A stretch of DNA of 64,000 bases, taken from IMG/VR virus record IMGVR_UViG_3300029998_000020, positions 9,130 to 73,129 of that record; one strand, 5' to 3'. Both the position numbers and the translations under genes were made by a program. How positions within the stretch are numbered: the first letter of the stretch is position 1; the number at the start of each line of letters is the position of its first letter. The stretch is from a virus. Below, piece after piece: positions 621-41,290 of the stretch. The notes beneath the pieces are model-generated. The model ran no database searches. It was given only the letters and a program-made list of their open reading frames with translations, and was not told where the DNA came from.

Positions 621-919
621 TTTTCTAAATCTTTTTTAGAAATATATTCAATAACGTCTTTTGATTTTTTAATTTCAGAAATAACCAATGAATATAATGA
701 ATCTTTAATTATTATTTTGTCATCATTTGAAGAACTTTCTAATATTGCTAATAGATTACTCATAGGACTTAATTTATTTCTAACATTAGCAAGTTCTTCA
801 ATTTGATATTTTTCAATCTCTTTAAGAAGGTCTTGCTTATCATTCCAACTTGATGCTGGTTGTTGCTCGGAATCAAATTTCCAAAAACTATTTACTAAAT
901 TTAAAATTTTGCTTTTCAT
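617..919 (-). CDS. Hypothetical protein
   Basis: 100 aa ORF, ATGA overlaps both sides. Confidence 0.65.
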   Translation of the reverse strand: MKSKILNLVNSFWKFDSEQQPASSWNDKQDLLKEIEKYQIEELANVRNKLSPMSNLLAILESSSNDDKIIIKDSLYSLVISEIKKSKDVIEYISKKDLEK

Positions 920-1167
920 AACATTTTCAATTTTTCCAATTTTTCTAATCTTAATATTTTAATTTTGTAAGTTTTCATTTTATTCAAGAATAAATCTTCA
1001 TTAGTGAAATCACCTAAGAAAATATCATATCCACCGTAATATAATTTATAATTAGTAAAATATCTCATTTCTACTTCACGTACCATAAATTTGTGAGTAT
1101 AACCATACCAAGTACGATCTTCAATATCATATCTAAAATTATTTAATATTAGGGTAGCTTCTGTCAT
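916..1167 (-). CDS. Small protein with C-terminal RxxKLxxL tag
   Basis: Ends ILRLEKLEKLKML. Confidence 0.7.
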   Translation of the reverse strand: MTEATLILNNFRYDIEDRTWYGYTHKFMVREVEMRYFTNYKLYYGGYDIFLGDFTNEDLFLNKMKTYKIKILRLEKLEKLKML

Positions 1168-1204
1168 TTATATAAAGTTACAAAAATGTTTTGTAATTAC
1201 CAAA

Positions 1205-1414
1205 TTATTTTTGAATTATTTTAATTTCATAGCCGATATTACTCAATTCCTTGATTATATCTTTCACCATCTGTTCAGCTTCTTCAACTTGAAGAACAGC
1301 ATACATACCTTCACCATTTTCTGTGGTTCTGAATATGTATATTGCCTCCAATAGTGCAAATTTTATTTTTTCGTTGTCTTCTTTCAAAGATAATTCTTCT
1401 AACTTGTTATCCAT
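1205..1414 (-). CDS. Hypothetical protein
   Basis: 69 aa ORF in operon. Confidence 0.6.
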   Translation of the reverse strand: MDNKLEELSLKEDNEKIKFALLEAIYIFRTTENGEGMYAVLQVEEAEQMVKDIIKELSNIGYEIKIIQK

Positions 1415-1416
1415 AT

Positions 1417-1830
1417 TTAATTTAATTCTTTATAGTAACCTTTATATTTTATGTTTGTTGTAGAATAGCCAAGTTTTTCCATTTTATCAGGTTTTACTGT
1501 TTCAACATAACCATCCAAATAAAGCCAAGTAATACCTATTTCTTTACATTTTTCTTCATAGTGTTTTAATAATTTAACACCAATTCCAGTATTTTGATAT
1601 TTAGGTAATACACCAACACTCCATAGCATGGAGCCTTGGCATAATAATTTTTCACCTAATACAAATCCAACACATTCTTCATCTAATTCATAGGTGAAAA
1701 ATAAATCTGTTAGACTTATAAGTTCTAAATACCAATCATAGTAAGATATTCCACCTTCAGTAGATGTGTTGCTTAATCCTGGTGCATTTGAAATTTCACA
1801 GATTTTTTAATAAATCTTTTTCAATTGTTT
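1417..1830 (-). pseudogene. GNAT (RimI-like) acetyltransferase with +1 frameshift in an A6 run
   Basis: ATG at 1830 (MIRKTIEKDLL); removing one A at 1803-1808 joins it to a frame ...CVGFVLGEKLLCQGSMLWSVGVLPKYQNTGIGVKLL (GNAT motif A). Confidence 0.75.
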
Positions 1831-1859
1831 TTCTTATCATTTTTAGGTTTAATTATTTA

Positions 1860-1890
1860 CAAATATACAAAAAATAATTGACATATCAAA
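1860..1890 (-). promoter_or_regulatory. Bacteroidota sigma70-type promoter
   Basis: TTTG-N19-TATATTTG upstream of the GNAT gene. Confidence 0.7.
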
Positions 1891-2172
1891 ATTTATTTGG
1901 TTATGTTTTTATCTAAATATTCTTTCCACATCTGTTCAACAAATTCTGAACGATTTATATTGTTATCTTTGAGGTATTTATCTATCTTATCAAAAACATC
2001 ATTATTTATTGATATGCTTATGTTCTTCTTCTTTTCTTCTGTTTCTTTTTTTGGTCTACCCATGATTTATTTTATATTTTACTATTATATATGAAAAAAT
2101 ATTCTTGGTTTAAAAATAGAAAAATATGACTTATTTTTATTTATATATAGATAAAAATGATACACAATTATT

Positions 2173-2334: not shown

Positions 2335-2335
2335 A

Positions 2336-3199: not shown

Positions 3200-3216
3200 T
3201 CATCACTTTTTAATTT

Positions 3217-4296
3217 TTAAATTTTATATAGAGGACAATCACGATTACAACGAATAAGGTTATTTCTAAAATTAATAGTCTTTTCGTTATTCCAAATATC
3301 ATCAATAAAATTACCACATTTTAAAACATTTAGTCCTTCTTTCCAATTTTCTGTATTTGGAGTAAATGAGCAAGGAAAATAATTTCCTTTGACATCAATA
3401 TAGCTACTATAACAACTTGACTCACATGGCTCTACACATTGCTTCATTTTGTTTCTGTATTCATCTGATAATGAGTTATCTGATTCCAAATATTTTAGAA
3501 ATTTGTGACTACTGCAACTATCAAATCCTATACTTATTTTTTCATCTAATGCAAATTTGCAAAGTTCATTAAACTTATCCTGTGGTAAAGGGTGAAATCT
3601 ATTTTCTGCTCTACCTTTAGTTTTTAAACTTAGTAAAACTAATGCGTTAAGATTTTTTAATCTTTCATCATTTTTACAATCTTTAATTACTTGCATTGTA
3701 TAGTCAAAATTTTCCAAGCAAATCATATCGTGAATGTTTACTTGTGTCATTCCTCTATCAGTTAATTCTTTTATTGCGTTGTAACTATTGTCTTTATTAT
3801 AAGATGTACCAACTGATACAGCAACTGCTCCCATTGTTTTTGATAATCTATCATACAATTCTGATGTCATTCGTGATCCATTTATTGTTACATTAGGAAC
3901 AACATCTTGAGAGCGAGTATAATCAAAAATATCCCACATATCTGGATTTGAATCAATGTCTGTTATTCCAAATGCTACCTGAGTTACAGTTAAAGGAAGC
4001 TTAGAAAAAATGTTTTTATATGTGTCTAATGACATATATTCACCATCTTTATTGTTGCTCTTGTAGCAAAATGAACAGTTTTGTTTACACGCTGTGTCAA
4101 TTTCAATATCAGCAATTTCAGGTAATCCTATTTCTAAATCACCATCATCATCTTCTGTTTTACCCCATCTGGCAAAAAACCCTGTTTTTTTGTTAAATAA
4201 GAAATTGTAGTTTTCTGATTTTAAAATTTTAACATCTTTATTATCTACAATTAGTGCTTCTTCACCGTTTGAAAGTTTTAATTTAGTTTGTTTCAT
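3217..4296 (-). CDS. Radical SAM protein with SPASM/twitch-like C-terminus
   Basis: CKQNCSFC (CxxxCxxC); C-terminal PCES.C...YIDVKGNYFPC...C. Confidence 0.85.
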   Translation of the reverse strand: MKQTKLKLSNGEEALIVDNKDVKILKSENYNFLFNKKTGFFARWGKTEDDDGDLEIGLPEIADIEIDTACKQNCSFCYKSNNKDGEYMSLDTYKNIFSKLPLTVTQVAFGITDIDSNPDMWDIFDYTRSQDVVPNVTINGSRMTSELYDRLSKTMGAVAVSVGTSYNKDNSYNAIKELTDRGMTQVNIHDMICLENFDYTMQVIKDCKNDERLKNLNALVLLSLKTKGRAENRFHPLPQDKFNELCKFALDEKISIGFDSCSSHKFLKYLESDNSLSDEYRNKMKQCVEPCESSCYSSYIDVKGNYFPCSFTPNTENWKEGLNVLKCGNFIDDIWNNEKTINFRNNLIRCNRDCPLYKI

Positions 4297-4550
4297 ATTT
4301 TGTTTAATTTGTTTAATTTGTCTCTTCTTTCAGATTTTAATGATGATTCAAATAATTCAATATAATATAATGTATAGGGTTGTTCTGATATTCCTATACG
4401 CAAAATGTCTTTGTTAATAGATGAATATTGTAGTCCATCTACAGTGTAATTTTTATCAAAACTCAAATCTGATGGTATTCCAATTTGCTCAAATATGTTT
4501 GTTGGTTTTTTGAGTATAACTTTATCACCAATTTTCAAGTTTGTTATCAT
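4293..4550 (-). CDS. KIGD-type small beta protein with C-terminal tag
   Basis: Starts LKIGDKVIL, ends ERRDKLNKLNKI. Confidence 0.7.
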   Translation of the reverse strand: MITNLKIGDKVILKKPTNIFEQIGIPSDLSFDKNYTVDGLQYSSINKDILRIGISEQPYTLYYIELFESSLKSERRDKLNKLNKI

Positions 4551-7955: not shown

Positions 7956-8111
7956 TTATAGATTATTTAATCTATTTAACTTTTCAGTTCTATCATTTTT
8001 TAATTTCTTTCTTTCTTCTTCTCTATCAAATATCATTTTAAATGTATAGTTATAAAATGCAGGATTTGCTACTAAGTCGTAGCTGAAAAGTTTACTTGAT
8101 TTTATTTCCAA
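7956..8111 (-). CDS. 51 aa mini-ORF: prohead-protease-like motif plus C-terminal tag; not in ORF track
   Basis: TTG start; MEIKSSKLFSYDLVANPAFYNYTFKMIFDREEERKKLKNDRTEKLNRLNNL. Confidence 0.6.
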   Translation of the reverse strand: MEIKSSKLFSYDLVANPAFYNYTFKMIFDREEERKKLKNDRTEKLNRLNNL

Positions 8112-8403
8112 TTTGCTTCAATTTCTTTTTTCTTAGATGCTTAACATATTCATTAGGAAAGTTATCATAGTCCAATACAGGCTTGTTTGAAGCTTCCTTT
8201 ATGACATCTAATTGCCATTGTATTGACTCAACTGGATCATCACATTCACTTTCATAAGATATTATAGTAATTGGATTTTCAGTACAAGCTTCAGGTAAGT
8301 CCGTTTCATCGTTATAATATACTTCATAAATACTAAAATGAACATCAGAGTATAAATCTGTTGTTATTCTTTTTGCTAAAATTCTATAATTCCAATGTGT
8401 CAT
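8092..8403 (-). CDS. Phage protein (WNYRI type) with C-terminal tag
   Basis: MTHWNYRIL...; ends HLRKKKLKQI. Confidence 0.7.
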   Translation of the reverse strand: MTHWNYRILAKRITTDLYSDVHFSIYEVYYNDETDLPEACTENPITIISYESECDDPVESIQWQLDVIKEASNKPVLDYDNFPNEYVKHLRKKKLKQIGNKIK

Positions 8404-8694: not shown

Positions 8695-8988
8695 TTATTG
8701 AATTGAATTTAATTTGTTTAATTTATTTTTTCTTGATAAATTTTTGATAGCATTATCAATTAGGTTATCTGTAATTTCTTTTTTATAATATCTGAAATTA
8801 TAAGAAGACTTCATTATTTCTAATTGATGTTCATTTGCATTCATTAATTTATTTAAAATACCCTCTTCTAATTCTTTATAGAATAGCATTTGACCTACCA
8901 CTTGAATATCCTTATATTTTAATGTGAGTTCTGAAATTAATTCTAAGTTATCACAACTTTTTTTTAATTGTTCAATTAATTCCTCCAT
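8695..8988 (-). CDS. Small protein with C-terminal tag
   Basis: Ends LSRKNKLNKLNSIQ. Confidence 0.7.
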   Translation of the reverse strand: MEELIEQLKKSCDNLELISELTLKYKDIQVVGQMLFYKELEEGILNKLMNANEHQLEIMKSSYNFRYYKKEITDNLIDNAIKNLSRKNKLNKLNSIQ

Positions 8989-13365: not shown

Positions 13366-13383
13366 CTATTTTTTATGATTCAA
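13355..13383 (-). promoter_or_regulatory. Bacteroidota sigma70-type promoter
   Basis: TTG-N18-TATCTTTG. Confidence 0.6.
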
Positions 13384-13675
13384 GTAAAATATTATTATTT
13401 TTTGTGATTTTTTGTGATTCTTCTATTTGTTTTAATTTTACTTTCCTTTCTTCTTTCTCAGAATAAAAAAATCTATTAAAATTAGGAAGTTCTTCATAAT
13501 CTTTTTCTAATGAGAAACAATAATAAGTATATCGATTATTTTCATTAATATTACGCATCTCAACAAAATATCTAAATAACTCATTCATAACATAATAATT
13601 ACCTCTAACGAAATCATATATTGATTCTTTACAACAATATTTCCTTTTTGTGTTTTTAATTCTACTATCCAACAT
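13373..13675 (-). CDS. Small protein with C-terminal tag, paralog of 13665-13913
   Basis: KYCCKESIY...FFYSEKEERKVKLKQI. Confidence 0.7.
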   Translation of the reverse strand: MLDSRIKNTKRKYCCKESIYDFVRGNYYVMNELFRYFVEMRNINENNRYTYYCFSLEKDYEELPNFNRFFYSEKEERKVKLKQIEESQKITKNNNILLES

Positions 13676-13913
13676 TATTGAGGCTTTCTAATTTTAACAT
13701 TCTTTCTTCTTTTTCACTGTAAAAATAATCATAAAAATAAAAATAGTAAGTTGTATATTTAAATATACAGAAAATTTCATCAAACTCTATTCCATCCACT
13801 ATCAAACGTAATATAACATCACTGTTGCTACACCAAGTTGTGTAATAACTATGCCCTTTTTCAAATCTATATATTGACTTCTTACAAAGATACTTTGTAC
13901 CTATTTTCAACAT
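13665..13913 (-). CDS. KIG-type small protein with C-terminal tag
   Basis: MLKIGTKYLCKKSIY...YFYSEKEERMLKLESL. Confidence 0.7.
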   Translation of the reverse strand: MLKIGTKYLCKKSIYRFEKGHSYYTTWCSNSDVILRLIVDGIEFDEIFCIFKYTTYYFYFYDYFYSEKEERMLKLESLNNVG

Positions 13914-14132: not shown

Positions 14133-16007
14133 TTATTTTATTTCCTCAAAATCCACGTCTGTTACATTTTCAGAATCATCTTTTTTGTCAGATGAATTGC
14201 TTTCATTCGTTGACTGATTTTTTGATTCTTCATAAAGTTTACCACTAATGTTTTGCCAAACATCATTAAGTTCTTTGGTGTATTTATCAATATTATCAAC
14301 ATTTTGAGTTTTGTGAGCTTCTTTAAGATTATCAAGTTTAGAATTCAATTCAGTTTTGTTTTCTTCATTCAATTTATCACCAAATTCTTCAATTTGTTTT
14401 TCAGTTTGAAAAATCATTGAGTCAGCTTGATTCAACTTATCAACTTTTTCTTTTTCTTTCTTATCAGCATCAGAATTTTGTTCAGCTTCCATTTTCATTC
14501 TTTCAATCTCTTCTTTTGTTAGAGATGAATTACCTTCAATCCTAATGTCATTCTTTTTTCCTGTTGCTTTATCAACTGCAGTAACTGTCAAAATATTATT
14601 TGCATCAATTGAAAACGAAATTTCTATTTGCGGTACTCCTCGTCTGGCTGGCATAATTCCATCTAAATTAAAAGTTCCCAACATTTTATTATCCTTAAAC
14701 ATACTTCTATTTCCAGTTGAAACATTAATCTGAACACCAGGCTGATTGTCAGTGGCTGTACTGAATATTTGTGTCTTAGTTGTAGGAATTGTTGTATTAG
14801 CCTCTACCATGACACTGGCTACACCGCCCATACTCTCCAGTGAGAAGTTTAAAGCTGTAACATCGAGTAATAAGATGTCAGTTGTATCACCAGCAAGAAC
14901 AGATGCTTGTATAGCTGCACCTGATGCAATTGCAGTATCAGGATTAAGTGACTTATTCGCTTTCTTACCAAAATATTTTTCAATACTTTCTGACAAATAT
15001 GGAATTCTAGTGCTACCTCCAACAAGTACAATTTCGTCAATATCTGAAACTTTCTTACCACTTTTATTCATTGATGATTGAATCAATGATATTGTTTTAT
15101 CAACATAGAATTGAATCAATTGTTCAAATTTAGATCTTGTTAATTTTTGAACCAAATGTTTAGGTTGTCCATCTACAGCAGTGATGTATGGTAAATTTAT
15201 TTCTGTTTGTGTAGTATTAGACAATTCTATTTTTGCTTTTTCTGATGCTTCTGTAACACGTTGTAGAGCCATTGGATCTTTACGAATATCAACGCCTGTT
15301 TCTTTTAAAAATTCATCAGATATAAAATTCACAAGTGCGTCATCAATTAAATTACCACCTAAATCTAAATCACCATCAGTTCCAATAACTTCAAATAATC
15401 CGTCCTCTATATCTAAAACTGAAAAATCACTTGTACACCCACCACTATCAACTATCATATAAAGTTTACCAGTTTTATCTTTAATATTTAATGATGCTGC
15501 TGTTGGTTCAGATATAATTCTATCAACAGTAAATCCTGCTATTTCACCTGCAACTTTTGTACTGCTTCTTTCATCTGAATTGAAATATGCTGGAGTTGTT
15601 ATGACCGCATTGGTTACATTTGTTCCAAGGTAATCTTCTGCTGTTTTTTTCATTTTTTGAAGGATCATTGCAGAAATTTCTTCTGGTGAATATATTCTTT
15701 CACCAATTTTTACACCAGCCTTACCATTATTATCAACTATATCATAAGGACGTTTAAGATGTTTAACTTCCTCATAAGTTCTACCAATAAGTCTTTTGAT
15801 ATTAAAAATTGTGTTTTTTGGATTTAATGCTGCTTGTCTTTTTGCAGATTCACCAACTTTAATTTCTCCTGTTTTTTCATCAAATGATACAATTGAAGGA
15901 GTTGATAGCGATCCTTCTGAATTAGGTATGACAATTGTTTGTCCACCTTCTACTATAGATACGGCTGAATTGTATGAACCTAAATCTATTCCAATAATTT
16001 TTCCCAT
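14133..16007 (-). CDS. dnaK: Hsp70 chaperone DnaK
   Basis: MGKIIGIDLG, IKRLIGR, EPTAA, VGGSTRIP, DNQPGV, RGVPQIEISF, C-terminal DVDFEEIK. Confidence 0.97.
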   Translation of the reverse strand: MGKIIGIDLGSYNSAVSIVEGGQTIVIPNSEGSLSTPSIVSFDEKTGEIKVGESAKRQAALNPKNTIFNIKRLIGRTYEEVKHLKRPYDIVDNNGKAGVKIGERIYSPEEISAMILQKMKKTAEDYLGTNVTNAVITTPAYFNSDERSSTKVAGEIAGFTVDRIISEPTAASLNIKDKTGKLYMIVDSGGCTSDFSVLDIEDGLFEVIGTDGDLDLGGNLIDDALVNFISDEFLKETGVDIRKDPMALQRVTEASEKAKIELSNTTQTEINLPYITAVDGQPKHLVQKLTRSKFEQLIQFYVDKTISLIQSSMNKSGKKVSDIDEIVLVGGSTRIPYLSESIEKYFGKKANKSLNPDTAIASGAAIQASVLAGDTTDILLLDVTALNFSLESMGGVASVMVEANTTIPTTKTQIFSTATDNQPGVQINVSTGNRSMFKDNKMLGTFNLDGIMPARRGVPQIEISFSIDANNILTVTAVDKATGKKNDIRIEGNSSLTKEEIERMKMEAEQNSDADKKEKEKVDKLNQADSMIFQTEKQIEEFGDKLNEENKTELNSKLDNLKEAHKTQNVDNIDKYTKELNDVWQNISGKLYEESKNQSTNESNSSDKKDDSENVTDVDFEEIK

Positions 16008-16025: not shown

Positions 16026-16259
16026 TTATTTTTTATTAATTTTTATTAATTGTAATTTTCTATATTCTTTTAGTGATATGAATCTGTTAGCATCAAATCT
16101 ACCTTTTATATTAGTTAATCCTACACTATTAACATTATAACTATAACAATACTCATCTATGACATACGTAGAATATTTTTTTAAATTCTTATATGGTTCA
16201 AAAGTAGTAGCATCATCACCATCATCAATACAAACAACTATATCTCCTATTTTAAACAT
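16026..16259 (-). CDS. KIGD-type small protein with C-terminal tag
   Basis: MFKIGDIVVCIDD...FISLKEYRKLQLIKIN. Confidence 0.75.
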   Translation of the reverse strand: MFKIGDIVVCIDDGDDATTFEPYKNLKKYSTYVIDEYCYSYNVNSVGLTNIKGRFDANRFISLKEYRKLQLIKINKK

Positions 16260-16920: not shown

Positions 16921-17793
16921 TTAAAACTTTTTCATTTTTTGGTAAGAAATTTCATTTCTTTCGTTACTACGTTGCTTATCTTTCTTTTTTTGTTCTTTCT
17001 TGTCCTTCCAAGATGTACCTTCAGATTTATCTTTGATATTTAAGATTGGTTTGATTTTATCAAGAATCAAAGCAGTAGGTCCAATTGCTTTTTCAATCAT
17101 TTCAGAGTTTTTGTAAGCAAATGGTGATTCATCAATTGTACTTTTACATACAGAAGTTGAATATATACCTTTCATTACTCTCTGAAAGTCTTTTAAATCA
17201 ACTGACTCTTTTGCTTTTGATCTTGACATCAAACGACCAGAACCATGTGGAGCTGAGTTATTCCAATCTTCATTTGATTTACCTTCACATATAAGTATTC
17301 CATCTCTCATATTGAATGGTATAATCATTTTTTCTCCAACATATGAAGATATAGCACCTTTTCTTATGATAAAGTCTTTGAAATCCACATAGTTATGTAT
17401 TGAATGAATTTCTTCATCAAATTTTTTGATATTCAATGCTTTTTTTATCAAAGACAACATAGTTTTTCTGCTCCATAGAGCATATTGTTGAGCAAAAATC
17501 ATATCAAATAGATAACCAATAAGATATTCTCCGTCTAAATATTCTTTGCCAATATTAAGACTGTATCTTGTTCTCAATTCTTTTATTTTTTTATCAATAT
17601 CAGATTTTGGATAAGTATTCATAGTAATGTCATCCAATTCCATGTTATATTCTTTGGTTGCAACAAATACTTTACCATTTGCTACTTTAGTCCAGTGTTC
17701 AGCTATTTTCAAACCAAAGTTTCTTGAGCCAGAGTGAACTGTTACCCAATAATCATTAGTCTTATCTGACTTACCAAGTTCAATAAAGTGATT
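16921..17793 (-). CDS. rtcB: RNA ligase RtcB, exon 2
   Basis: NHFIELG, VHSGSRNFG, HNY, SAPHGSGR.MSR, DESP.AYK. Confidence 0.92.
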   Translation of the reverse strand, partial: NHFIELGKSDKTNDYWVTVHSGSRNFGLKIAEHWTKVANGKVFVATKEYNMELDDITMNTYPKSDIDKKIKELRTRYSLNIGKEYLDGEYLIGYLFDMIFAQQYALWSRKTMLSLIKKALNIKKFDEEIHSIHNYVDFKDFIIRKGAISSYVGEKMIIPFNMRDGILICEGKSNEDWNNSAPHGSGRLMSRSKAKESVDLKDFQRVMKGIYSTSVCKSTIDESPFAYKNSEMIEKAIGPTALILDKIKPILNIKDKSEGTSWKDKKEQKKKDKQRSNERNEISYQKMKKF

Positions 17794-19490: not shown

Positions 19491-19732
19491 AATATTTCAT
19501 TCAATTTATTTATTTTATTTATTTTATTCATTCTTAAAACTCTTTTACTAATGAAAAATGATCCATAACTTATATAACATATAACTCCAGCATCTGTCAT
19601 TATTGATATAGCTCCAAGCATTATTTCTAATACTTTATAATCTTTGCCTACTGAAATAAGGTGATCATTTGTGTTATCAATTTTGATGCAAGTAACAATT
19701 TCACCAATTTTATATTTATTTATTTTTTTCAT
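19475..19732 (-). CDS. KIG-type small protein with C-terminal tag
   Basis: YKIGEIVTCI...VLRMNKINKI. Confidence 0.7.
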   Translation of the reverse strand: MKKINKYKIGEIVTCIKIDNTNDHLISVGKDYKVLEIMLGAISIMTDAGVICYISYGSFFISKRVLRMNKINKINKLNEIFCQSK

Positions 19733-20054
19733 TTATTTTATTAAGTTTCAATGTTCTATATTCTTTTACCCCAATGAATCTTTTCATATCAAAAACAGTA
19801 TGTCCATGTATCTTTTCAACTTCATCTAATATATATGATGTGTTTTCATATGTACTACTGGTATTATCAATTTTGTCTCCACAATTTCCATCATCTCCCC
19901 AATATGTATGAATTTCTTTAATTGTATAATATTTATACTTTTCTAATGGATTTATTTTATGATATTCTAAAATACAAGAAGAATAATCATAAAATATTTC
20001 CTTTGAGTAAGGTTTATCATCAATACAAACCATAATATCACCTACTTTGTACAT
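19716..20054 (-). CDS. KVGD-type small protein with C-terminal tag
   Basis: MYKVGDIMVCIDD...FIGVKEYRTLKLNKIN. Confidence 0.75.
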   Translation of the reverse strand: MYKVGDIMVCIDDKPYSKEIFYDYSSCILEYHKINPLEKYKYYTIKEIHTYWGDDGNCGDKIDNTSSTYENTSYILDEVEKIHGHTVFDMKRFIGVKEYRTLKLNKINEKNK

Positions 20055-20282
20055 ATCTTATTAAGTTTTTCTAATTTCATTTTTCTATAATAAGAAGTTT
20101 TAATAAAATATGATGATTTAAACCATAATACAATATTTCTTGTTTCAATACGAATGTAGATTGAATAAAAAAGATGATTTGTTGATTTTATTTTATATCT
20201 TTCTCATTTTTTTTAGATATTCACGAGAAAGGTAATCTCCATCATCATTAATAAAAGTAACAGAATCACCTACTTTGAACAT
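20042..20282 (-). pseudogene. Frameshifted KVGD-family gene with C-terminal tag
   Basis: MFKVGDSVTFINDDGDYLSREYLKK / +1 shift at A8 run / ERYKIK...YYRKMKLEKLNKICTK. Confidence 0.7.
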
Positions 20283-20539
20283 ATTTTATTGAGTTTTTCT
20301 AATTTCATTTTTCTAATTGATTGATCATCTGTGAAAAATTCTATCGGTATAAATTGGGAAAATCTTTTTGTGTCAGTTTTTATACAAATTTTATTAAAAA
20401 AATGATAATCTAAATCATTGATTTTATATTTTTTGCCTATTGTTAAATGTTGTTCCCAGTAATCATCATTGTCATATTTTACGCAAGTAACAACTTGTCC
20501 AATTTTAAAATCTTGATAAGTCAATTCTTTATTTTGCAT
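20270..20539 (-). CDS. KIG-type small protein with C-terminal tag
   Basis: FKIGQVVTCV...SIRKMKLEKLNKICSK. Confidence 0.75.
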   Translation of the reverse strand: MQNKELTYQDFKIGQVVTCVKYDNDDYWEQHLTIGKKYKINDLDYHFFNKICIKTDTKRFSQFIPIEFFTDDQSIRKMKLEKLNKICSK

Positions 20540-20808
20540 AATTTATTGAGTTTTATTTTTCTTAAAATTGAAATCAATTCTCTTTCAGTTATAAAATGAT
20601 TACTTATTGATTGTCTGCATATATTTCCATTGATATTAGATTTAATAATTATTCCATATTTTGAATTATTATTGTTATAACTTATTGAAAGTATATCTAC
20701 ATCATGTGAAATATTTAAATTAAATTTTTTGTTATAATATTGTCTTAATTCTCTTAATAAGAGTAAATATGATTTAATGTCTAAGTTTGAAACTATATTG
20801 TCTGACAT
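20521..20808 (-). CDS. Small protein with C-terminal tag
   Basis: Ends ILRKIKLNKLCKIKN. Confidence 0.65.
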   Translation of the reverse strand: MSDNIVSNLDIKSYLLLLRELRQYYNKKFNLNISHDVDILSISYNNNNSKYGIIIKSNINGNICRQSISNHFITERELISILRKIKLNKLCKIKN

Positions 20809-21131
20809 AATTTTACAAGTTTTTGTTTTCTCAAAAAAATATTATGTTCTTTATCATCAACAAATTGATATAGCACATCACCTATAACTTCATGATTAGA
20901 ATACATAAGTGTATATATTTTGTGTTCAAACCTAATAGAAAAAGATGTTTCGCATGAATAGAAAATTTCAAACCTTCTATTGTATCTTTCATTAAGTAAT
21001 GTTATTGCAGCAGACCTAATTATTTCTTTTCTTTCATCTTTTGTAATAAAATTATCCATTTGATAACAATTACGAGGCATACCCCATAATCCATTATCTT
21101 GTTTTTTTGATTTTATTGGTATTATATCCAT
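20793..21131 (-). CDS. Small protein with C-terminal tag
   Basis: Ends FLRKQKLVKLCQTI. Confidence 0.65.
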   Translation of the reverse strand: MDIIPIKSKKQDNGLWGMPRNCYQMDNFITKDERKEIIRSAAITLLNERYNRRFEIFYSCETSFSIRFEHKIYTLMYSNHEVIGDVLYQFVDDKEHNIFLRKQKLVKLCQTI

Positions 21132-21648: not shown

Positions 21649-21815
21649 TTTAAGTTATTTATTTTTTCTATCTTTTTCTTTCTTTCTATTTTTGTTATTT
21701 TTCTTTTTAGTTCAGCAGCTAATTTTTCATCTATATCAAAAGATTCTGGATATAAACTTGCATAATCAAAATTAGATATACTATATAAATCTTCAAATTT
21801 CAGATTCTTCTTCAC
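21645..21815 (-). CDS. 56 aa mini-ORF: PolB motif-A-like peptide plus C-terminal tag; not in ORF track
   Basis: GTG start; MKKNLKFEDLYSISNFDYASLYPESFDIDEKLAAELKRKITKIERKKKIEKINNLK; TGA overlaps next ATG. Confidence 0.65.
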   Translation of the reverse strand: MKKNLKFEDLYSISNFDYASLYPESFDIDEKLAAELKRKITKIERKKKIEKINNLK

Positions 21816-22452
21816 TACAATTTATTTTATTTAATTTTATTTTTCTATTGAATTTTATCAATAGTTCAGTATCCTTATATCTTAATATAGACAATTCAAA
21901 TCCGTTATTATTATAATGATTTTCTAATTTAGATATAAATAATTCAAAATTTTCAGATAGAACTCCATTTTTTTCAAATATTTTTGGCTTGTTATTTTTA
22001 TTTTCATATATTCCTCTAATTAGAACCTTATTTATACGTGTTGAAAAATTTATATAATCTTGGTCATTGCATAATTTCCAATTTTGATTTAATATTAATT
22101 TTTTAATTTTTTTATATTGTTCATCTATGATACCCCAATAGTGATATTCATTTTCACTGTCAGCTCCTTTGTTATAGCTACTTATAAATATTACATATGG
22201 AGTATCTTTATATAAAGTTTTGAATAATTCATATTTAGATTTGCAATCTAAATCAAACACTGGATAAATAACATTTTTAAATTTTGACTCAATTAAAACT
22301 TCACAATATCTATCAATATTAATCATAGTTCTGAAGTATTTCATTATACTACCAATAGATTTATATTTTAGTTTTGATGTTGTATCATAACTTCCATAAT
22401 GTGTTGTTTGATGTAGATATATTAATTCATTTTTATTTTTAAATAAAATCAT
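21793..22452 (-). CDS. Possible AEP/primase-like or nucleotidyltransferase-like protein with C-terminal tag
   Basis: PVFDLD...IFISS...HYW; ends FNRKIKLNKIN. Confidence 0.45.
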   Translation of the reverse strand: MILFKNKNELIYLHQTTHYGSYDTTSKLKYKSIGSIMKYFRTMINIDRYCEVLIESKFKNVIYPVFDLDCKSKYELFKTLYKDTPYVIFISSYNKGADSENEYHYWGIIDEQYKKIKKLILNQNWKLCNDQDYINFSTRINKVLIRGIYENKNNKPKIFEKNGVLSENFELFISKLENHYNNNGFELSILRYKDTELLIKFNRKIKLNKINCSEEESEI

Positions 22453-22871: not shown

Positions 22872-22901
22872 CAAAGATAACAAAAATATTCAATAAAACA
22901 A
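22872..22901 (-). promoter_or_regulatory. Bacteroidota sigma70-type promoter
   Basis: TTG-N19-TATCTTTG. Confidence 0.7.
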
Positions 22902-23417: not shown

Positions 23418-23675
23418 ATGAAATATCATGTCGGTGATAACGTTGTGTTCATAAATAATTCCAAAAATGCTTACGATTGGAACATAACTGAGTATAAAAT
23501 CTATAAAATTTATGGATATTCAATTCATAAATCTCAAATTGTATATTCTGTCAAATTTGGAACAACTATTCAAAGTTGGTACAGTGAATGTGACTTCATG
23601 TCATTAAAAGAATATAGAAAATTGAAAATAGAAAAAATAAATAAACTAAAAAATGGGTATATTGGAGATAGATAG
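23418..23675 (+). CDS. VGD-type small protein with C-terminal tag
   Basis: MKYHVGDNVVFI...FMSLKEYRKLKIEKIN. Confidence 0.75.
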   Translation: MKYHVGDNVVFINNSKNAYDWNITEYKIYKIYGYSIHKSQIVYSVKFGTTIQSWYSECDFMSLKEYRKLKIEKINKLKNGYIGDR

Positions 23676-23888
23676 TGAATATATACAGAAAGAAGAATTG
23701 ACTACATTAGGATTAGTTTGTCACTGAGTAAAGACAGTCAATAATAAATTTTATTATCACATTATGAATATTGGTGATAGTAAAAAAATAGACATTTATG
23801 TTACACAGCAAGAACTTAATAATATTGAAGAATATATGAAAAATTATTATAAAGAAATTAGATTAAAAAATTAAAAAAATTAAAATGA
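23653..23888 (+). pseudogene. Degenerate small gene with in-frame TGA and a 1-nt deletion in the tag
   Basis: MGILEIDSE...VCH*VKTV...YYKEIRLK(K)LKKLK; TGA at 23725-27. Confidence 0.5.
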
Positions 23889-24202
23889 AAAAAATTAAAA
23901 AAATAATAATTTTTTTAAATAAGTCATTTAATCCATATTATGAATTAAATAAACAGGCAAAAACAATTGAAAATATATATGAAAAACTTATATCAAGTCA
24001 ATTAGATAGTAGACTGAATGAACTTGAAAGACTTAGAAATATGAGTGAAGAAGATATAAAAAATGAGAAAGAAAAAATCTTAAATATAGAGGCAACTAAA
24101 ATATTAACTCAGTTAGAATGTAATCCAGAATTATATAGAGTATTTAATAATATATTAAGAATAAATAAATTTAAAAAAATAGAAGATAGTAAAAATGAGT
24201 AA
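23885..24202 (+). CDS. Helical protein with C-terminal tag
   Basis: Ends ILRINKFKKI. Confidence 0.65.
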   Translation: MKKIKKIIIFLNKSFNPYYELNKQAKTIENIYEKLISSQLDSRLNELERLRNMSEEDIKNEKEKILNIEATKILTQLECNPELYRVFNNILRINKFKKIEDSKNE

Positions 24203-24779
24203 TTTAATAGAACATGCAAAAAAAGAATTTATAGCATTAGGATATAAACCAGTTGATGAATGTGAAGAAGGACCAAATAGATGGGTACAAGAAAATGTAT
24301 TGGAATTACTTGAGATGTTTTCTAAACAAGGACATTCAGGATTTTCAGCAAAAATTGTTATTGACTATTTTAAAAAATTAGCAAATTTTAAACCAATTGC
24401 GCCAATTATGTGTACTGATGATGAATGGATCGATGTTTCTATATATAATAATGATGTGACTTATCAAAATACTCGTTGTTCTGCTGTTTTTAAAAATTCA
24501 ATAAATGACTCACCATATTATTTGGATGCAATAGTTTTTGTTGAAGATGGAAATTCATCTTATACTGGAGGTGCTTTTAATAAGAAGCATGAACGTATCA
24601 CAAGTAGTCAAGAAATAAAAATTCCGTTTATTCCAAAATCTTTTTATGTCGATGTTGTAGATATTGATGGAGAACATCACATTAAAGATGAATCTCAATT
24701 AAAGGAAATTTGGGAATATTATGAGCATCAAGAAACAAAATCATTTATTAGATTACAAAAATTAAAAGCATTAAAATGA
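24195..24779 (+). CDS. Phage protein with C-terminal tag
   Basis: MSNLIEHAKKEF...FSKQGHSGFSA; ends FIRLQKLKALK. Confidence 0.75.
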   Translation: MSNLIEHAKKEFIALGYKPVDECEEGPNRWVQENVLELLEMFSKQGHSGFSAKIVIDYFKKLANFKPIAPIMCTDDEWIDVSIYNNDVTYQNTRCSAVFKNSINDSPYYLDAIVFVEDGNSSYTGGAFNKKHERITSSQEIKIPFIPKSFYVDVVDIDGEHHIKDESQLKEIWEYYEHQETKSFIRLQKLKALK

Positions 24780-24994
24780 AAATAACAATAGATGAATCAC
24801 AATTTGATGTCAAATGGGATTTTGGAGATTTACCAGATAATCCCAGTAAAAGTTTGACTATTGATATGTTAAATAGGTGGCAAGAATTTATAAATTATGA
24901 CAAAATAAATGAAGCAAGAAAAGAAGCAAGAAAATTAAGAATTGATAAATTAAATGAAATAATTTCAAAATCAAATGACAATACAGAATTATAA
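24776..24994 (+). CDS. Small protein with WDFGD motif and C-terminal tag
   Basis: VKWDFGD...RKEARKLRIDKLNEI. Confidence 0.65.
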   Translation: MKITIDESQFDVKWDFGDLPDNPSKSLTIDMLNRWQEFINYDKINEARKEARKLRIDKLNEIISKSNDNTEL

Positions 24995-27080: not shown

Positions 27081-27347
27081 TTATTTTTTATTTACTTTTT
27101 CTTCACCGCAAATGTCAATTTTTATTTTATCTAAATCTTTCGTTGCACCTTTTCCTTTAGTCCAATATTTGTTTATATTATCAAAAAATTCACTTTTCTT
27201 TTCATCTGATAATTTTGCAGGAGATTTAACATCATAGCAATCAAGTATAAATTTAAAATATTCTCTATACTCTATTTGTAAATCTGATAATTTTTCATTT
27301 AAAGATAAACTTTCATTATATTGTTTAAAATCTTTGATTTTATTCAT
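27081..27347 (-). CDS. Late small protein with CTS-like N-terminus
   Basis: MNKIKDFKQYNES; TAATATATA at 27368-76. Confidence 0.7.
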   Translation of the reverse strand: MNKIKDFKQYNESLSLNEKLSDLQIEYREYFKFILDCYDVKSPAKLSDEKKSEFFDNINKYWTKGKGATKDLDKIKIDICGEEKVNKK

Positions 27348-29114: not shown

Positions 29115-29501
29115 TTATATATTGAATTTATTTGAGTTTTTATAAAATTCTAAGTTTTCTGGATGTTCTAAAAAAGAAACATTGTTATATCCTATAATTA
29201 TTCCATAATCGTCTATTAATAATCCACAATTTTTTGCATATTTCTCAGCCTCAATATCATCTTTAATTAAAATTGAGTCATCATCTTTTTGTATTTGCCA
29301 ATAATCTCCATATTTATTTGTATATGGTACATTATATTCATTTGGAATATTCAATCCTGATGCATGTGAAATAAGCCAACCTTCTTTTTTCATTATATCA
29401 TCATAAAGATTACAAAACCATTCAATGAAGGGCTGAAATAAATCTATTGGATATATTTTCTTATTATCTTTAATATTTTCATATTTTTTGATATATTTCA
29501 T
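29115..29501 (-). CDS. Late protein with CTS-like N-terminus and KFNI C-terminus
   Basis: MKYIKKYEN...FYKNSNKFNI. Confidence 0.7.
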   Translation of the reverse strand: MKYIKKYENIKDNKKIYPIDLFQPFIEWFCNLYDDIMKKEGWLISHASGLNIPNEYNVPYTNKYGDYWQIQKDDDSILIKDDIEAEKYAKNCGLLIDDYGIIIGYNNVSFLEHPENLEFYKNSNKFNI

Positions 29502-30492: not shown

Positions 30493-30777
30493 TTATAAAT
30501 TAAATTTATTAGTTGTTCTCATAAATTCAGAGTCATCTTTAACTTTTGATATTGCAGTTCTTAGTCTTAATATCTGTGTTTCTTTCATTGCATTATAATT
30601 CTCACAAGATTTTTTTATATTATCAGCTAAATCTTTTATTCTACTATACTCATCATCAGTTAAGAAAATATTAGAACTCATGGTGTTGCCAAGTTTCAAT
30701 TCTCCATTTTTAGGTTCAATAAAATATCCTTTTTCTCTTGAACTTTCGTTTATTTCTTCAAATTTATTCACCTTCAT
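30493..30777 (-). CDS. Late protein with CTS-like N-terminus and KFNL end
   Basis: MKVNKFEEINES...TTNKFNL. Confidence 0.7.
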   Translation of the reverse strand: MKVNKFEEINESSREKGYFIEPKNGELKLGNTMSSNIFLTDDEYSRIKDLADNIKKSCENYNAMKETQILRLRTAISKVKDDSEFMRTTNKFNL

Positions 30778-30778
30778 A

Positions 30779-31120
30779 TTATATGTTAAATTTTTTTGAA
30801 TTTTTATACACCTCAGGATTGTCTACAAATTTCATTATATCATCAAATTCACTTTGATTTATAATATCACAATATTTTTTTTTAGAACTAGATTCTATAA
30901 TAATCATAACAGAATAAAAATATCCGTTATTTTCAAAATCTTTCTCAATAGTCTTTTCTATACTAATTGCTTTAACTTTTTTAAGTCCATATCCATAATG
31001 ATTTATTCTAAATTGATCATTGAAATTATAATAATCACTTATGAGATTCATAATATCTAACCTTATTCTTTCACACTCATGGTTTAATTTTAAATATTCA
31101 TCATATTTATTTACCTTCAT
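30779..31120 (-). CDS. Late protein, tandem paralog of 31122-31451 (start revised to MKVNKYDEY)
   Basis: Ends NPEVYKNSKKFNI. Confidence 0.7.
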   Translation of the reverse strand: MKVNKYDEYLKLNHECERIRLDIMNLISDYYNFNDQFRINHYGYGLKKVKAISIEKTIEKDFENNGYFYSVMIIIESSSKKKYCDIINQSEFDDIMKFVDNPEVYKNSKKFNI

Positions 31121-31121
31121 A

Positions 31122-31451
31122 TTATATGTTAAATTTTTTTGAGTTTTTATATACATCAGGATTTTCTATAAATTTAATCATATCATCATATTCACTTTGA
31201 GTTAACTTATCATAATTTCTACCTCCTGGTACATAATATTCTATCCAATAAAAATATTCTCCTGAATCATAATCTATTTCATCAGACTTACTAACATTTA
31301 AGACAATTTTAATATTATTATCTCCAATATGAGTTATTCTGAAATCATCATTCAAATTATAATAATCTTGAATTAGACTCATAATATTACTTCTTTCGAT
31401 ATCGTATTTATCTTTCAACTTTAAAAATTGTTCATATCTAGTTACTTTCAT
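31122..31451 (-). CDS. Late protein, tandem paralog of 30779-31120
   Basis: MKVTRYEQF...NPDVYKNSKKFNI. Confidence 0.7.
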   Translation of the reverse strand: MKVTRYEQFLKLKDKYDIERSNIMSLIQDYYNLNDDFRITHIGDNNIKIVLNVSKSDEIDYDSGEYFYWIEYYVPGGRNYDKLTQSEYDDMIKFIENPDVYKNSKKFNI

Positions 31452-38790: not shown

Positions 38791-38995
38791 AATCAGTTAT
38801 ATTTTTTTCTTCTTTAAGATAATTATCTATTATAGTTACTGCTGTTGCTATTCCTGTTGGAGTAAATCTATAACTAAATCTACCACCTATTCCTGTTTGT
38901 GGAGATTTTTTTATTTTTTTTTGTTTTTCCATCCACTCATTTGCGGATTTTTCTTCTTTCTCTGTTAAATCAAATTTAATCATATTTTTAATCAT
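38777..38995 (-). CDS. Small phage protein
   Basis: GIGGRFSYRFTPTGIA. Confidence 0.65.
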   Translation of the reverse strand: MIKNMIKFDLTEKEEKSANEWMEKQKKIKKSPQTGIGGRFSYRFTPTGIATAVTIIDNYLKEEKNITDYDCW

Positions 38996-39857
38996 TTGGT
39001 TCTATGTGAATATAAATTTCACTTCTCTTTATTTTATTTTTTATTTCATTCTCAATTTTATCACAGACAGAATGAGCTTCTAATAAAGTTAATTCAGAAT
39101 TTAAATGTAAGTCAAATTTTATAAATGTATCTGCACCTGAGCTTCTAACTTTTAAATCATGAAATAGTTTTACATCTTCACAACTATTTAATATATCTAC
39201 TATAATATCACTCACACCTACTGGTGCTTTATCTAACAGAACATCAATTGCATTTTTAGCTAATCTATAAGAAACTAATATAATTATAAAGGCAACACCT
39301 AATGCAGCAACAGAATCAGCCCAATAAACATTAAAATTTATAAGAATCAAACCAACTAATACAACACATGAACTCCATATATCTGTTTTAAAATGAATAG
39401 AATCTGCTTCTAATGCTTGACTGTTATATTTTTTTGCTACTTTTTTTAACATTCTTGAACGATTTATATCAATTATAATAGATGATATAATAACCACATA
39501 ACTCCATATAGTTACTTCAACATCAAAATCGTTAGAAATTAATTTTGATAATGATTCTGAAATTATCCAAATGCTTGTAACACCTAATAACATTGCTTCT
39601 GCAAATGCTGATAAATTCTCTACTTTACCGTGCCCATAATTATGTTTATAATCTGCAGGTTTATCTGATACTCTAACAGAAAAATATGTAATAATAGCAG
39701 CAACCATATCCAATGTTGAATGTAATGCTTCTGATAATATTCCTAAACTGCCTGTCATCAATCCAATTATAAGCTTGAATAATGTCAATGCTCCTGATGC
39801 AATAACAGATAAAAAAGCTGCTTTCTTTTTTTCAGTTGTGTCTAATTTTTGTTCCAT
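38988..39857 (-). CDS. Cation diffusion facilitator (FieF-like) transporter
   Basis: SEALHSTLD, HNYGHGKVE, ADSIHFKTD, C-terminal IHIEP. Confidence 0.92.
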   Translation of the reverse strand: MEQKLDTTEKKKAAFLSVIASGALTLFKLIIGLMTGSLGILSEALHSTLDMVAAIITYFSVRVSDKPADYKHNYGHGKVENLSAFAEAMLLGVTSIWIISESLSKLISNDFDVEVTIWSYVVIISSIIIDINRSRMLKKVAKKYNSQALEADSIHFKTDIWSSCVVLVGLILINFNVYWADSVAALGVAFIIILVSYRLAKNAIDVLLDKAPVGVSDIIVDILNSCEDVKLFHDLKVRSSGADTFIKFDLHLNSELTLLEAHSVCDKIENEIKNKIKRSEIYIHIEPND

Positions 39858-39868
39858 TTTTCTTATAA

Positions 39869-40111
39869 TTAATTTACTTCACTAAGAGTTTTGAGTTTTT
39901 GTTTACGAATCATTTTTTTTACAAATAAATGATAATCATATAGTTTTATTGATATTTTAATATTTCTATATTTTGCCAATTCCATATCAAAATACTTTAC
40001 TGTGTAGCAAGCTACTTCATCAGAGTAAGAGTGTATTTTTATATCTTCTATTGTATTTTCCCCTAATGCATTTATAGATAATAAATAACTCTTTACTGTT
40101 GGATTTTTCAT
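39869..40111 (-). CDS. Small protein with C-terminal tag
   Basis: Ends MIRKQKLKTLSEVN. Confidence 0.65.
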   Translation of the reverse strand: MKNPTVKSYLLSINALGENTIEDIKIHSYSDEVACYTVKYFDMELAKYRNIKISIKLYDYHLFVKKMIRKQKLKTLSEVN

Positions 40112-40566
40112 GGTTTTAGTTTACCTATTGTTTCAATTTTTATATTAATTAATGATACTAATCTATTTATTTCTTGTGAATGTATACCTCCCTGTGACAT
40201 AGTCCACATTTTTTTTATTTCTACATCAAACAAATCTTTCAATTCTTTAACTGTATCAGTATCATTTATCAAAGATTCAACTTTATCACGATAATCAAAA
40301 AATACATCACTTTTTCTACTTATATTAAATGAAAATGTTATTAAAATTGAAAACATAAATGACAAACCAACAGAGAATTTCAACATAACATTATGAATCC
40401 TAATATCATCATTAGGAATAACATAATAGAATAATAGATAACAAAAACTAACAAAAAATACAAATGATAACACAAAAACAATCCATAAAGAACATGTATC
40501 AAAATACTTACTTAATGTTTTCATAATTTTTATTTTTATAAGTGTAAATAATAAAGAATTGACCAC
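40108..40566 (-). CDS. Two-TM membrane protein
   Basis: Two hydrophobic helices; start probably MKTLSK. Confidence 0.6.
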   Translation of the reverse strand: MVNSLLFTLIKIKIMKTLSKYFDTCSLWIVFVLSFVFFVSFCYLLFYYVIPNDDIRIHNVMLKFSVGLSFMFSILITFSFNISRKSDVFFDYRDKVESLINDTDTVKELKDLFDVEIKKMWTMSQGGIHSQEINRLVSLINIKIETIGKLKP

Positions 40567-40582
40567 AATAAAATTGATATTT

Positions 40583-40945
40583 TCATAATCCTATGCTTAT
40601 AAATAACATTATACAATTACTTTTAAAAATGCTAGAAAAAATACAATATGCATTTAAAAATTCAGCAAATTCAGATGTGATTTCCCTATATTTTATGTCA
40701 GCATCTTTTTGAGATATTTTTTTATCAAGTAATTTATTTTTTATATCAATCATTCTGATAGCAAGGCTAAATACTTTTTTAACCAATTTATCTGAAAAAA
40801 CTCCAACAAATTCAAAAGTTTCCATTAATTTATTGAATGCTTTATAATTATCAATATTATTCTCGTTTATCCAAGAATTTTCTAAGTCATATCCATATTC
40901 TGATTTCATGCTCATTTTATTTAGTTTTTTATAATTATTGTACAA
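40583..40945 (-). CDS. Hypothetical protein
   Basis: ORF behind TATCTTTG at 40943-50. Confidence 0.55.
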   Translation of the reverse strand: MYNNYKKLNKMSMKSEYGYDLENSWINENNIDNYKAFNKLMETFEFVGVFSDKLVKKVFSLAIRMIDIKNKLLDKKISQKDADIKYREITSEFAEFLNAYCIFSSIFKSNCIMLFISIGL

Positions 40946-40999
40946 AGATAATAAAAAAATGAGCTATAATAATCTATAGCTCATTTTATTTTTAATGAT

Positions 41000-41290
41000 T
41001 TAATGTTTTTTGTGTTTATAATATAATTTTTTACTATATTTTTCTTCTTGTTTTTTTCTTTCTTCTAATTTTTTATTAATTTCATTATAAGTGTTATTGG
41101 ATAATTTTTCCAAGTATTTCAACTTTTTCTTTCTATCTTCTTTTTTCCTTACTTGTGATTCGTATTTTTCTATTATTTTAGCAGTAATAGAATCAATAAT
41201 TACATAATTACCAGATCCGTTCAAATTTTTCTGGTGAATAATATTCGCAGCATTTAGTATTTTTTGATATAGTTCACTGTTTTTTGACAT
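41000..41290 (-). CDS. 96 aa protein: T4-gp23-like major capsid segment plus tag
   Basis: LYQKILNAANIIHQKNLNGSGNYVIIDS then RKKEDRKKKLKYLEKL. Confidence 0.65.
   Translation of the reverse strand: MSKNSELYQKILNAANIIHQKNLNGSGNYVIIDSITAKIIEKYESQVRKKEDRKKKLKYLEKLSNNTYNEINKKLEERKKQEEKYSKKLYYKHKKH

Follow-up and report, generated by a model that had tools for sequence, protein, structure and literature searches.

The window analysed here is a stretch of 64,000 nucleotides comprising bases 9130-73129 of the 92,766-bp virus contig IMGVR_UViG_3300029998_000020 (26% G+C). It contains a short motif, R-x-x-K-[LI]-x-x-[LI], recurring near the C-termini of its small proteins, which we will call the tag. 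The contig encodes Hsp70/DnaK (14133-16007 of the window), a split family-B polymerase, PhoH, NAD synthetase and a collagen-like fibre. In GenBank, DnaK and the polymerase are matched best by genomes of 634-735 kb that are labelled 'uncultured phage' (LR745206 and LR756501-4), followed by Chryseobacterium and Tenacibaculum phages. The 634-735-kb genomes represent the Mahaphage clade, with Bacteroidetes as predicted hosts (PMC7162821). CheckV completeness of the contig is 13%, and as one of its proteins, the Tad3-like one described below, has an identical copy on a 711-kb public contig, the complete genome probably measures about 700 kb. A Shine-Dalgarno-like sequence precedes just 3 of the 141 contig genes and the regions upstream of starts consist of about 60% A, which fits a Bacteroidota host. 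The contig is probably about 13% of a Mahaphage-type huge phage infecting Bacteroidota.

In the window, the tagged genes diverge, leftward from 22683 and rightward from 22909, and the gap at 22700-22900 looks like the divergent control region of a non-late block. The first rightward gene (22909-23199) gives a weak Peptidase_S24/LexA-like match. The gene for DnaK lies inside the tagged block, and so it does in two syntenic loci, L001 (a 97-kb JGI contig) and L004, where the tag is present on most small genes around DnaK.

Among the 141 proteins called on the contig (28,017 aa from 92.8 kb), the strict pattern R-x-x-K-[LI]-x-x-[LI] was matched 22 times, as compared with 2.2 matches expected from composition. 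Nineteen matches lie in the last 25 residues, here taken as C-terminal. On average, 0.23 such matches were obtained in 2000 shuffles of whole proteins, and shuffling the last 25 residues alone gave a mean of 0.58 and a maximum of 5 in 2000. Internal matches are close to expectation (3 versus 2.0), and the other two reading frames at the same gene ends contained none. The enrichment over shuffled C-termini is real, and all instances listed in the initial annotation are present at the respective gene ends. Two of these are near matches, however, one probably belongs to a decayed gene copy and one is doubtful (Table 1).

Table 1. Occurrences of the tag in the window, with coordinates of the motif and of the gene or open reading frame (ORF) carrying it. 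AF2, AlphaFold2.
Motif	Motif position	Strand	Gene or frame	Length	Remarks
RLEKLEKL	928..951	-	916-1167	83 aa	end of gene
RRDKLNKL	4305..4328	-	4293-4550	85 aa	beta-barrel family
RTEKLNRL	7968..7991	-	7956-8111	51 codons	TTG ORF
RKKKLKQI	8110..8133	-	8092-8403	103 aa	phrog_21321-like
RKNKLNKL	8710..8733	-	8695-8988	97 aa	
REHKISSI	12715				extra strict match, doubtful meaning
RKVKLKQI	13424..13447	-	13373-13675	100 aa	beta-barrel family; 24 residues from end
RMLKLESL	13680..13703	-	13665-13913	82 aa	beta-barrel family
RKLQLIKI	16038..16061	-	16026-16259	77 aa	beta-barrel family; near match; L001 orthologue RKLKLEKL
RMNKINKI	19511..19534	-	19475-19732	85 aa	beta-barrel family
RTLKLNKI	19734..19757	-	19716-20054	112 aa	beta-barrel family
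RKMKLEKL	20063..20086	-	frame ending 20042	53 codons	start-less; probably decayed copy of the 20270 gene
RKMKLEKL	20291..20314	-	20270-20539	89 aa	beta-barrel family
RKIKLNKL	20539..20562	-	20521-20808	95 aa	
RKQKLVKL	20808..20831	-	20793-21131	112 aa	
RKKKIEKI	21660..21683	-	21645-21815	56 codons	GTG ORF; conserved in L001 and L004
RKIKLNKI	21823..21846	-	21793-22452	219 aa	
RKLKIEKI	23616..23639	+	23418-23675	85 aa	beta-barrel family; tag in AF2 helix 63-80
RINKFKKI	24158..24181	+	23885-24202	105 aa	near match; L001 orthologue RRNKLGKI
RLQKLKAL	24750..24773	+	24195-24779	194 aa	Tad3-like; tag is model helix 182-193
RIDKLNEI	24938..24961	+	24776-24994	72 aa	
RKQKLKTL	39884..39907	-	39869-40111	80 aa	outside main block
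RKKKLKYL	41111..41134	-	41000-41290		44 residues from end, K/E-rich region; doubtful as tag

The first arginine of the tag (R1) lies 9-24 residues from the C-terminus on the contig (median 13), and 0-16 variable residues follow the motif, the final residues not being conserved. A logo of 66 tags from the contig and its two syntenic relatives reads [LI](-4) K(-3) x [LI](-1) R1 K2 x K4 L5 x K7 [IL]8 N9 x [IL]11. Fixed positions are limited to R1, K4, L/I5 and L/I8 together with a lineage-specific position 9, and the remainder is variable. On a helical wheel, these five positions cluster within about 140 degrees of one another, with variable ones between them. The tag is modelled by AF2 as a confident terminal helix on two different bodies. 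Two flavours of the tag can be distinguished. In the window's lineage, it reads R-K-x-K-L-x-K-[LI]-N with R1 at a median of 13 residues from the end; in the genomes LR756502 and G004 it reads R-[DNE]-x-K-[LI]-x-x-[IL]-[LGF] and R1 is 10 residues away from the C-terminus. Over its ten residues, the tag carries a mean net charge of about +3 in the former lineage and of +1.5 in LR756502. The 'basic' character attributed to the tag by the initial annotation is therefore a property of the window's lineage, and not of LR756502 with its D, N or E at position 2.

That selection on the tag acts at the protein level, and not on composition or DNA, is supported by several observations. Leucine is encoded in the tags by TTA, TTG, CTT, CTC and CTA, isoleucine by ATA and ATT, arginine by AGA, AGG and CGT, and lysine by AAA and AAG, which confirms the synonymous variation (TTA/TTG/CTT, AAA/AAG) pointed out previously; Leu/Ile positions switch among TTA, TTG, CTN and ATH. 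Across 14 pairs of orthologues from the window and L001, positions 5 and 8 often change codon family and remain L or I (codon-family changes between the two include CTC>ATT, ATA>TTG and TTT>CTT). The ratio of non-synonymous to synonymous divergence (pN/pS) of the nine tag residues equals that of the bodies (0.36 versus 0.37), because the intervening tag positions change freely. The motif was also found in a relative with 47% G+C (locus L043).

The initial annotation had offered an alternative, namely that the A-rich codons serve as an initiation region, devoid of a Shine-Dalgarno sequence, for the next gene. Such a region needs a fixed spacing to the start, but the distance from motif to next start ranges on the contig from 23 to 272 nt in all three phases, and the motif is confined to the frame of the upstream gene. 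A start codon follows within 30 nt of 72-78% of tagged genes; the gene after a tagged one lies on the opposite strand in 6-12% of cases in three larger genomes, and the tag is kept there. Codon use at R1, K4, L5 and L8 equals the genome background in the window's lineage. In LR756502, tag positions favour A-ending synonymous codons (p ~1e-4 to 1e-5), and this bias is the sole trace found of an A-rich start-region effect. As a cause of the tag, the start region can be discarded, a small part of it surviving in this bias, whereas the idea of a portable protein-level module is upheld by the codon-family swaps, the G+C-richer relative, the retention of tags where no gene follows downstream, and tails restricted to single clades (see below).

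The bodies that carry the tag are diverse. All-against-all BLAST and alignment revealed a family of paralogues that share [FY]-K-[IV]-G-[DEQ]-x-V-x-C as their N-terminal signature and account for about 8 of the 21 tagged window proteins (beta-barrel family in Table 1). In the AF2 model of the 23418 protein (predicted local distance difference test score, pLDDT, 82), the tag-bearing helix comes after a barrel of five strands; the model bears a weak resemblance to the prophage protein YorP and to Tudor, chromo-barrel and PWWP domains. The remaining tagged proteins match one another through the tail alone (8695 and 23885 almost only so). With the tag cut off, 106 LR756502 bodies fell into 105 BLAST clusters, and 108 bodies from G001, a 256-kb fragment of the window's lineage, into 70. 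Without the tag, most bodies thus show no BLAST similarity, and their previous description as unrelated is mostly right, the barrel paralogues being the exception. Almost no matches to Pfam or PHROGs were obtained, either for tagged proteins or for their untagged neighbours. The tag was likewise said to be absent from enzymes; this holds in the window, but LR756502 carries it on a riboflavin kinase (Pfam E=2e-22) as well as on a BtpA-like protein, at 38954-39598 (-) and 618937-619842 (-), which shows that the tag is not restricted to orphan mini-proteins. A DUF6011 protein is also tagged.

Two families indicate how the tail was acquired. As for the first, gene 24195-24779 encodes a homologue of Tad3, the type I Thoeris inhibitor (Pfam PF25185, E=3.3e-34, 117.7 bits with a cut-off of 27), and its predicted structure agrees with chain B of the ThsB-Tad3 complex 9b7d (Foldseek E=1.8e-15, TM 0.68-0.72), so that by sequence and model it qualifies for this family and fold. 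Its alignment to the solved Tad3 ends at residue 167, ahead of the tag helix. The tail ...E-T-x-S-Y-x-R-x-K-K-L-K-x-I-N... is present in 70 of 120 proteins among the homologues listed, these 70 comprising nearly every homologue of 55% identity or more, while more distant ones end just before the tail. As for the second, the phrog_21321-like family, about 31 homologues have R-K-K-K-L-x-x-I after ...F-P-N-E-Y, and three distant homologues stop right after ...F-P-N-E-Y. Since the tail is found in one clade only in both families, it has been appended as a module to pre-existing domains.

The tag is unevenly distributed among related phages. When 80 IMG/VR loci were fetched through DnaK, 20 contained at least four tagged genes within 10 kb on either side. 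In the tag-plus relatives, 7-24% of all genes carry the tag: 108 of 458 (24%) in G001, whose DnaK is 79% identical to that of the window (0.8 expected), 110 of 975 in the 642-kb LR756502 (1.6 expected) and 32 of 463 in the 385-kb, 95% complete G004 (0.6 expected). Internal matches in LR756502 are near expectation (24 versus 18). LR745206 also counts as tag-plus. The 735-kb LR756501 contains just 3 among 1025 genes (1.3 expected) and the 597-kb, 98% complete G005 only 4 among 890 (1.2 expected). The tag is therefore all-or-none between related genomes. Moreover, the window's polymerase is 55.6% identical to that of the tag-free LR756501 and 42.6% to that of LR756502; the window phage is by this measure closer to a genome lacking the tag, which points to a patchy distribution. 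Single 41-kb samples of LR756504, LR756508, LR756500, Lak-B4, the Chryseobacterium phage MA9V-2 and the Tenacibaculum phage pT24 contained 0-1 tags, several of these samples being structural or replication regions that leave the tag status unsettled.

LR756501 possesses a portable motif of its own, D-P-Y-G-E-E-x-W (for example at 499642-503434 and 552409-554555), found at the C-termini of 43 proteins (42 BLAST clusters without the motif). Another 43 proteins contain 57 copies internally, and no matches were found in the tag-plus genomes. It may represent an alternative tag system. G005, the genome that includes locus L051, harbours at about 33-127 kb some 80 paralogues with a median length of 221 aa and a common 25-residue C-terminal block, I-W-N-D-D-L-S-L-N-x-x-N-F-x-x-L-x-x-E-I-x-D-G-L. 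Their bodies form one BLAST cluster, that is, a gene family, and the block was rejected as a portable tag.

Finally, tagged genes differ from other genes in their upstream regions. The sequence T[AT]ATATATA occurs about 30 nt upstream of 18 contig genes, mostly in the 26.5-38-kb block and before large structural-looking genes. In full form, it precedes none of the 19 tagged contig genes, in accordance with the absence of the tag from late genes noted in the initial annotation. In four genomes, T[AT]ATATATA was present within 60 nt upstream of 3 of 269 tagged genes, 89 of 216 genes with an N-terminal leader and 305 of 1552 other genes. The leader (M-K-H-L-K-x-Y... or M-K-x-[LIV]-K-x-[YF]...) resembles the capsid-targeting sequence (CTS) of phage T4 and was found on 111 genes in LR756502, 45 in G004 and 57 in G001. 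In the window, it is represented by genes 27081-27347, 29115-29501 and 30493-31451 on the minus strand, with ends K-F-N-[IL]. Leader and tag avoid each other: they coincide on no gene of LR756502 (12.5 expected from 110 tagged and 111 leader genes), on none of G004 and on one of G001. Judging from the promoter-like motif, tagged genes would belong to a non-late class, and the leader would mark a separate late class that is probably capsid-directed.

To explain these observations, we propose that the tag, rather than being a capsid signal, is a C-terminal helix through which proteins dock to a single common partner, which the phage itself probably encodes; we assign this a probability of about one half. 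According to the model, a helix of about 16 residues, with S/T-x-K as N-cap followed by R1-x-x-K4-[LI]5-x-x-[LI]8-[N/L]9, has been appended to the C-termini of many otherwise unrelated, fast-evolving and mostly small accessory proteins within one Mahaphage-type group. The face formed by R1, K4, [LI]5, [LI]8 and position 9 would constitute the docking surface, by which tagged proteins plug into a partner having an acidic rim and a hydrophobic groove. The tag would mark non-late genes and be separate from the CTS-like leader of late genes, whose products are probably capsid cargo. Docking is suggested by the conservation of a charged and apolar face on unrelated proteins, uniform within a genome and differing between lineages. 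The all-or-none distribution together with the lineage-specific secondary preferences (K versus D/N/E at position 2, N versus L/G/F at position 9, and different tail lengths) would favour a phage-encoded over a host-encoded partner. Docking might serve to localise the tagged proteins at a site built by the phage, to pass them on to a chaperone or protease, or to let them co-assemble.

Several points weigh against this proposal. No partner was found in phyletic comparisons of the phage genomes. In a comparison of LR756502, LR756501 and G001-G005, DnaJ and a ClpB-like AAA_2 protein occur in tag-plus and tag-minus genomes alike, as does DnaK; ClpP is present in LR756502, G002, G003 and the tag-minus G005 but in neither LR756501 nor the tag-plus G004. 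When the substrate-binding domain of DnaK (residues 380-605) was co-folded with the tagged 23418 protein, the score was 0.00, which counts as no answer and is evidence neither way. Part of the tagged set is paralogous, with the helix directly after a chromo/Tudor-like barrel, where a helix can be structural, and the high pLDDT of the tag helix could reflect packing on its own body. Expression timing is read from a promoter-like motif alone. Lastly, with the contig about 13% complete, its own candidate readers are mostly unseen.

A search for the reader by presence and absence yielded 134 candidate proteins that LR756502 and G004 share but LR756501 and G005 lack, a large number because the first two are close relatives. 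Of these, just two have a homologue in G001 or the contig (36% and 13% complete, respectively), namely a GIY-YIG endonuclease and a membrane protein of the MgtC family (Pfam E=3e-34). The MgtC-family protein (218025-218654 in G001, 435266-435733 in LR756502, 283212-283676 in G004) is the sole non-mobile gene present in all three sampled tag-plus lineages and in neither tag-minus genome, but the incompleteness of the data makes it a weak candidate.

Other explanations are considered in order of decreasing probability. The first, a special case of docking, is that the helix is a handle for turnover or chaperoning, read by an AAA+ protease, an adaptor or Hsp70, whereby early accessory proteins would be cleared or held at a set time. 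The non-late class of the tagged genes and the position of DnaK within the tagged block agree with this, and the tag resembles both the basic and hydrophobic C-terminal signals recognized by ClpX (the MuA C-terminus and the SspB XB tail) and the Leu-rich cores flanked by basic residues that DnaK prefers. However, the tag does not lie at the extreme C-terminus. DnaK, which the initial annotation had suggested as reader, is encoded in LR756501 and G005 too, both of which lack the tag, DnaJ and ClpB-like proteins likewise occur in tag-free genomes, ClpP does not track the tag, and the 92.8-kb contig contains no match to ClpP or DnaJ and no clear one to an AAA+ protein. We therefore regard such a handle as unlikely.

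The second explanation, which we consider rather improbable, is common descent: the tagged proteins would derive from one exploded barrel-plus-helix family, in which the helix, serving no shared partner, has been retained as the structural element under the strongest constraint. It is in line with the recognisable paralogues in the window, with the modelled helix that follows the barrel directly, as in chromo-barrel and PWWP folds, and with the tandem arrays of tagged genes in G001 (clusters of 19, 9 and 6; 64 adjacent tagged pairs versus 25 expected). On the other hand, the Tad3-like and phrog_21321-like families have untagged distant relatives, so that the tail must have been added; the riboflavin kinase, BtpA-like and DUF6011 proteins are tagged; and nearly every LR756502 body forms its own cluster. 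Proteins 8695 and 23885 do not align with the barrel family, and two invariant residues of the tag are charged, which is unusual for a packing helix.

Less can be said for self-association, in which the tag would act as a short zipper by which small proteins dimerise or co-assemble. The Leu or Ile residues recur every 3-4 positions, Asn is frequent at position 9 in the window's lineage, and many small phage inhibitors work as oligomers. Nevertheless, the helix spans only about two heptads, a zipper does not need an invariant R1 and K4, and the same tags on more than 100 proteins would cross-pair indiscriminately; we hold this possibility to be poor. A signal for packaging into the virion, corresponding to the T4 CTS but placed at the C-terminus, is a poorer candidate still, even if anti-defence proteins such as the Tad3 homologue would gain from injection with the DNA: the late-type motif precedes hardly any tagged genes as opposed to 41% of leader genes, tag and leader exclude each other, and 100 to perhaps 300 cargo species per genome would far exceed known virion proteomes. 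A nucleic-acid-level or electrostatic role (start region of the next gene, recombination boundary, or sticking to DNA, RNA or membranes) is largely refuted, its support from rare Shine-Dalgarno-like sequences, A-rich upstream regions, nearby starts and the A-ending lean of LR756502 being outweighed by the variable spacing and phase, the tags kept before opposite-strand genes, the differing codon families of copies and orthologues, the lack of matches in other frames, the near-neutral tags of LR756502, which speak against nucleic-acid sticking, and a hydrophobic moment too low for membrane sticking (0.04-0.30 for consensus tags versus 0.57-0.60 for the MinD and FtsA membrane helices).

Returning to the docking helix, one may go further and imagine at least two address systems in these phages. 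A CTS-like leader would direct late proteins to the capsid, and the tag helix would be recognised by a receptor specific to the lineage and thereby bring up to a quarter of the proteome, made up of early, rapidly evolving proteins with accessory or anti-defence roles, to an intracellular site or hub that the phage builds. In sister lineages, tag and receptor would have given way to another such pair, of which the D-P-Y-G-E-E-x-W motif of LR756501 might be an example. We put this forward as speculation, which is unlikely to hold in full.

A few neighbouring features deserve mention. The GTG ORF 21645-21815 (-) encodes F-D-Y-A-S-L-Y-P, similar to motif A of family-B polymerases, followed by the tag. 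Judging from its conservation both in L001 (7125-7295) and in L004 (7536-7706, starting M-Q-N-F-N-V-D-F-S-S-L-Y-P), a more distant locus, it is a real, selected mini-gene. RtcB is encoded by a single uninterrupted 464-aa gene in L001 (3455-4849), whereas in the window (16921-19409, minus strand) it is split by about 1.1 kb containing a 261-aa ORF with TTATATATA ahead of it, an arrangement that would fit an intron or a homing-endonuclease insertion. Left of the window (G000:C1:1984-7453) there are seven paralogues starting with M-K-I-R-x-G-F-V-S-N-S-S-S-S-S-F, two of which match the tag pattern loosely.

If the tag is an address label, one short rule would sort hundreds of orphan huge-phage proteins into a functional class, that of non-late accessory proteins including a Tad3-type anti-defence homologue, and would point to the receptor that organises them. 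This would offer a direct handle on the cell biology of huge phages, almost all genes of which are unannotated, and the tag-plus and tag-minus sister genomes provide a natural comparison for finding the receptor. Should the tag be just a structural relic, it would still define a very large and rapidly diversifying gene family. Searches of the literature on huge phages gave no description of a shared C-terminal motif, and the word 'C-terminal' is absent from the main text of PMC7162821; the tag looks like an undescribed address or docking label. New here are the genome-wide counts, the contrast between tag-plus and tag-minus sisters, the two tail acquisitions, the exclusivity towards leader and late motif, and the different motif of LR756501.

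Two likenesses to known elements were discarded. A J-domain was rejected because the tagged proteins gave no DnaJ Pfam match at E<=0.1 and have no HPD after the helix, and the similarity of K-E-Y-R-K-L to J-domain helix II was dropped as it is confined to one paralogue family. A membrane-targeting helix of the MinD/FtsA type was rejected on account of the hydrophobic moment.

Three known systems come closer. The CTS of phage T4 is carried N-terminally by the late virion proteins IPI, IPII, IPIII and Alt and is cleaved off by the head protease at an L/I-x-E site. Like the tag, it is a short peptide common to unrelated phage proteins that works as an address, and a leader similar to it stands on many late genes of the same genomes; the tag differs in being C-terminal, in standing on genes that lack the late motif and in excluding the leader. 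Among peptides that tether proteins to AAA+ machines, the XB tail of SspB binds the N-domain of ClpX and MuA carries a C-terminal signal. Here, too, a short basic and hydrophobic C-terminal peptide brings varied binding domains to one machine, but these peptides (L-R-V-V-K or R-R-K-K-A-I, and LAA-like degrons as well) lie at the very end, unlike the tag with its helix and variable tail; furthermore, no ClpX was found in the contig. The third system comprises motifs that dock to a hub, such as the PIP box, the beta-clamp motifs, the gp45-binding tails of T4 and the clients of the SSB C-terminal tail, in which one terminal peptide on many unrelated proteins is read by one hub, much as we propose for the tag. 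Those motifs follow the consensus Q-x-x-[LIM]-x-x-[FY][FY] or Q-L-[SD]-L-F and reside on replication and repair enzymes, whereas the window's DNA polymerase and other enzymes are untagged and the carriers of the tag are small orphan proteins.

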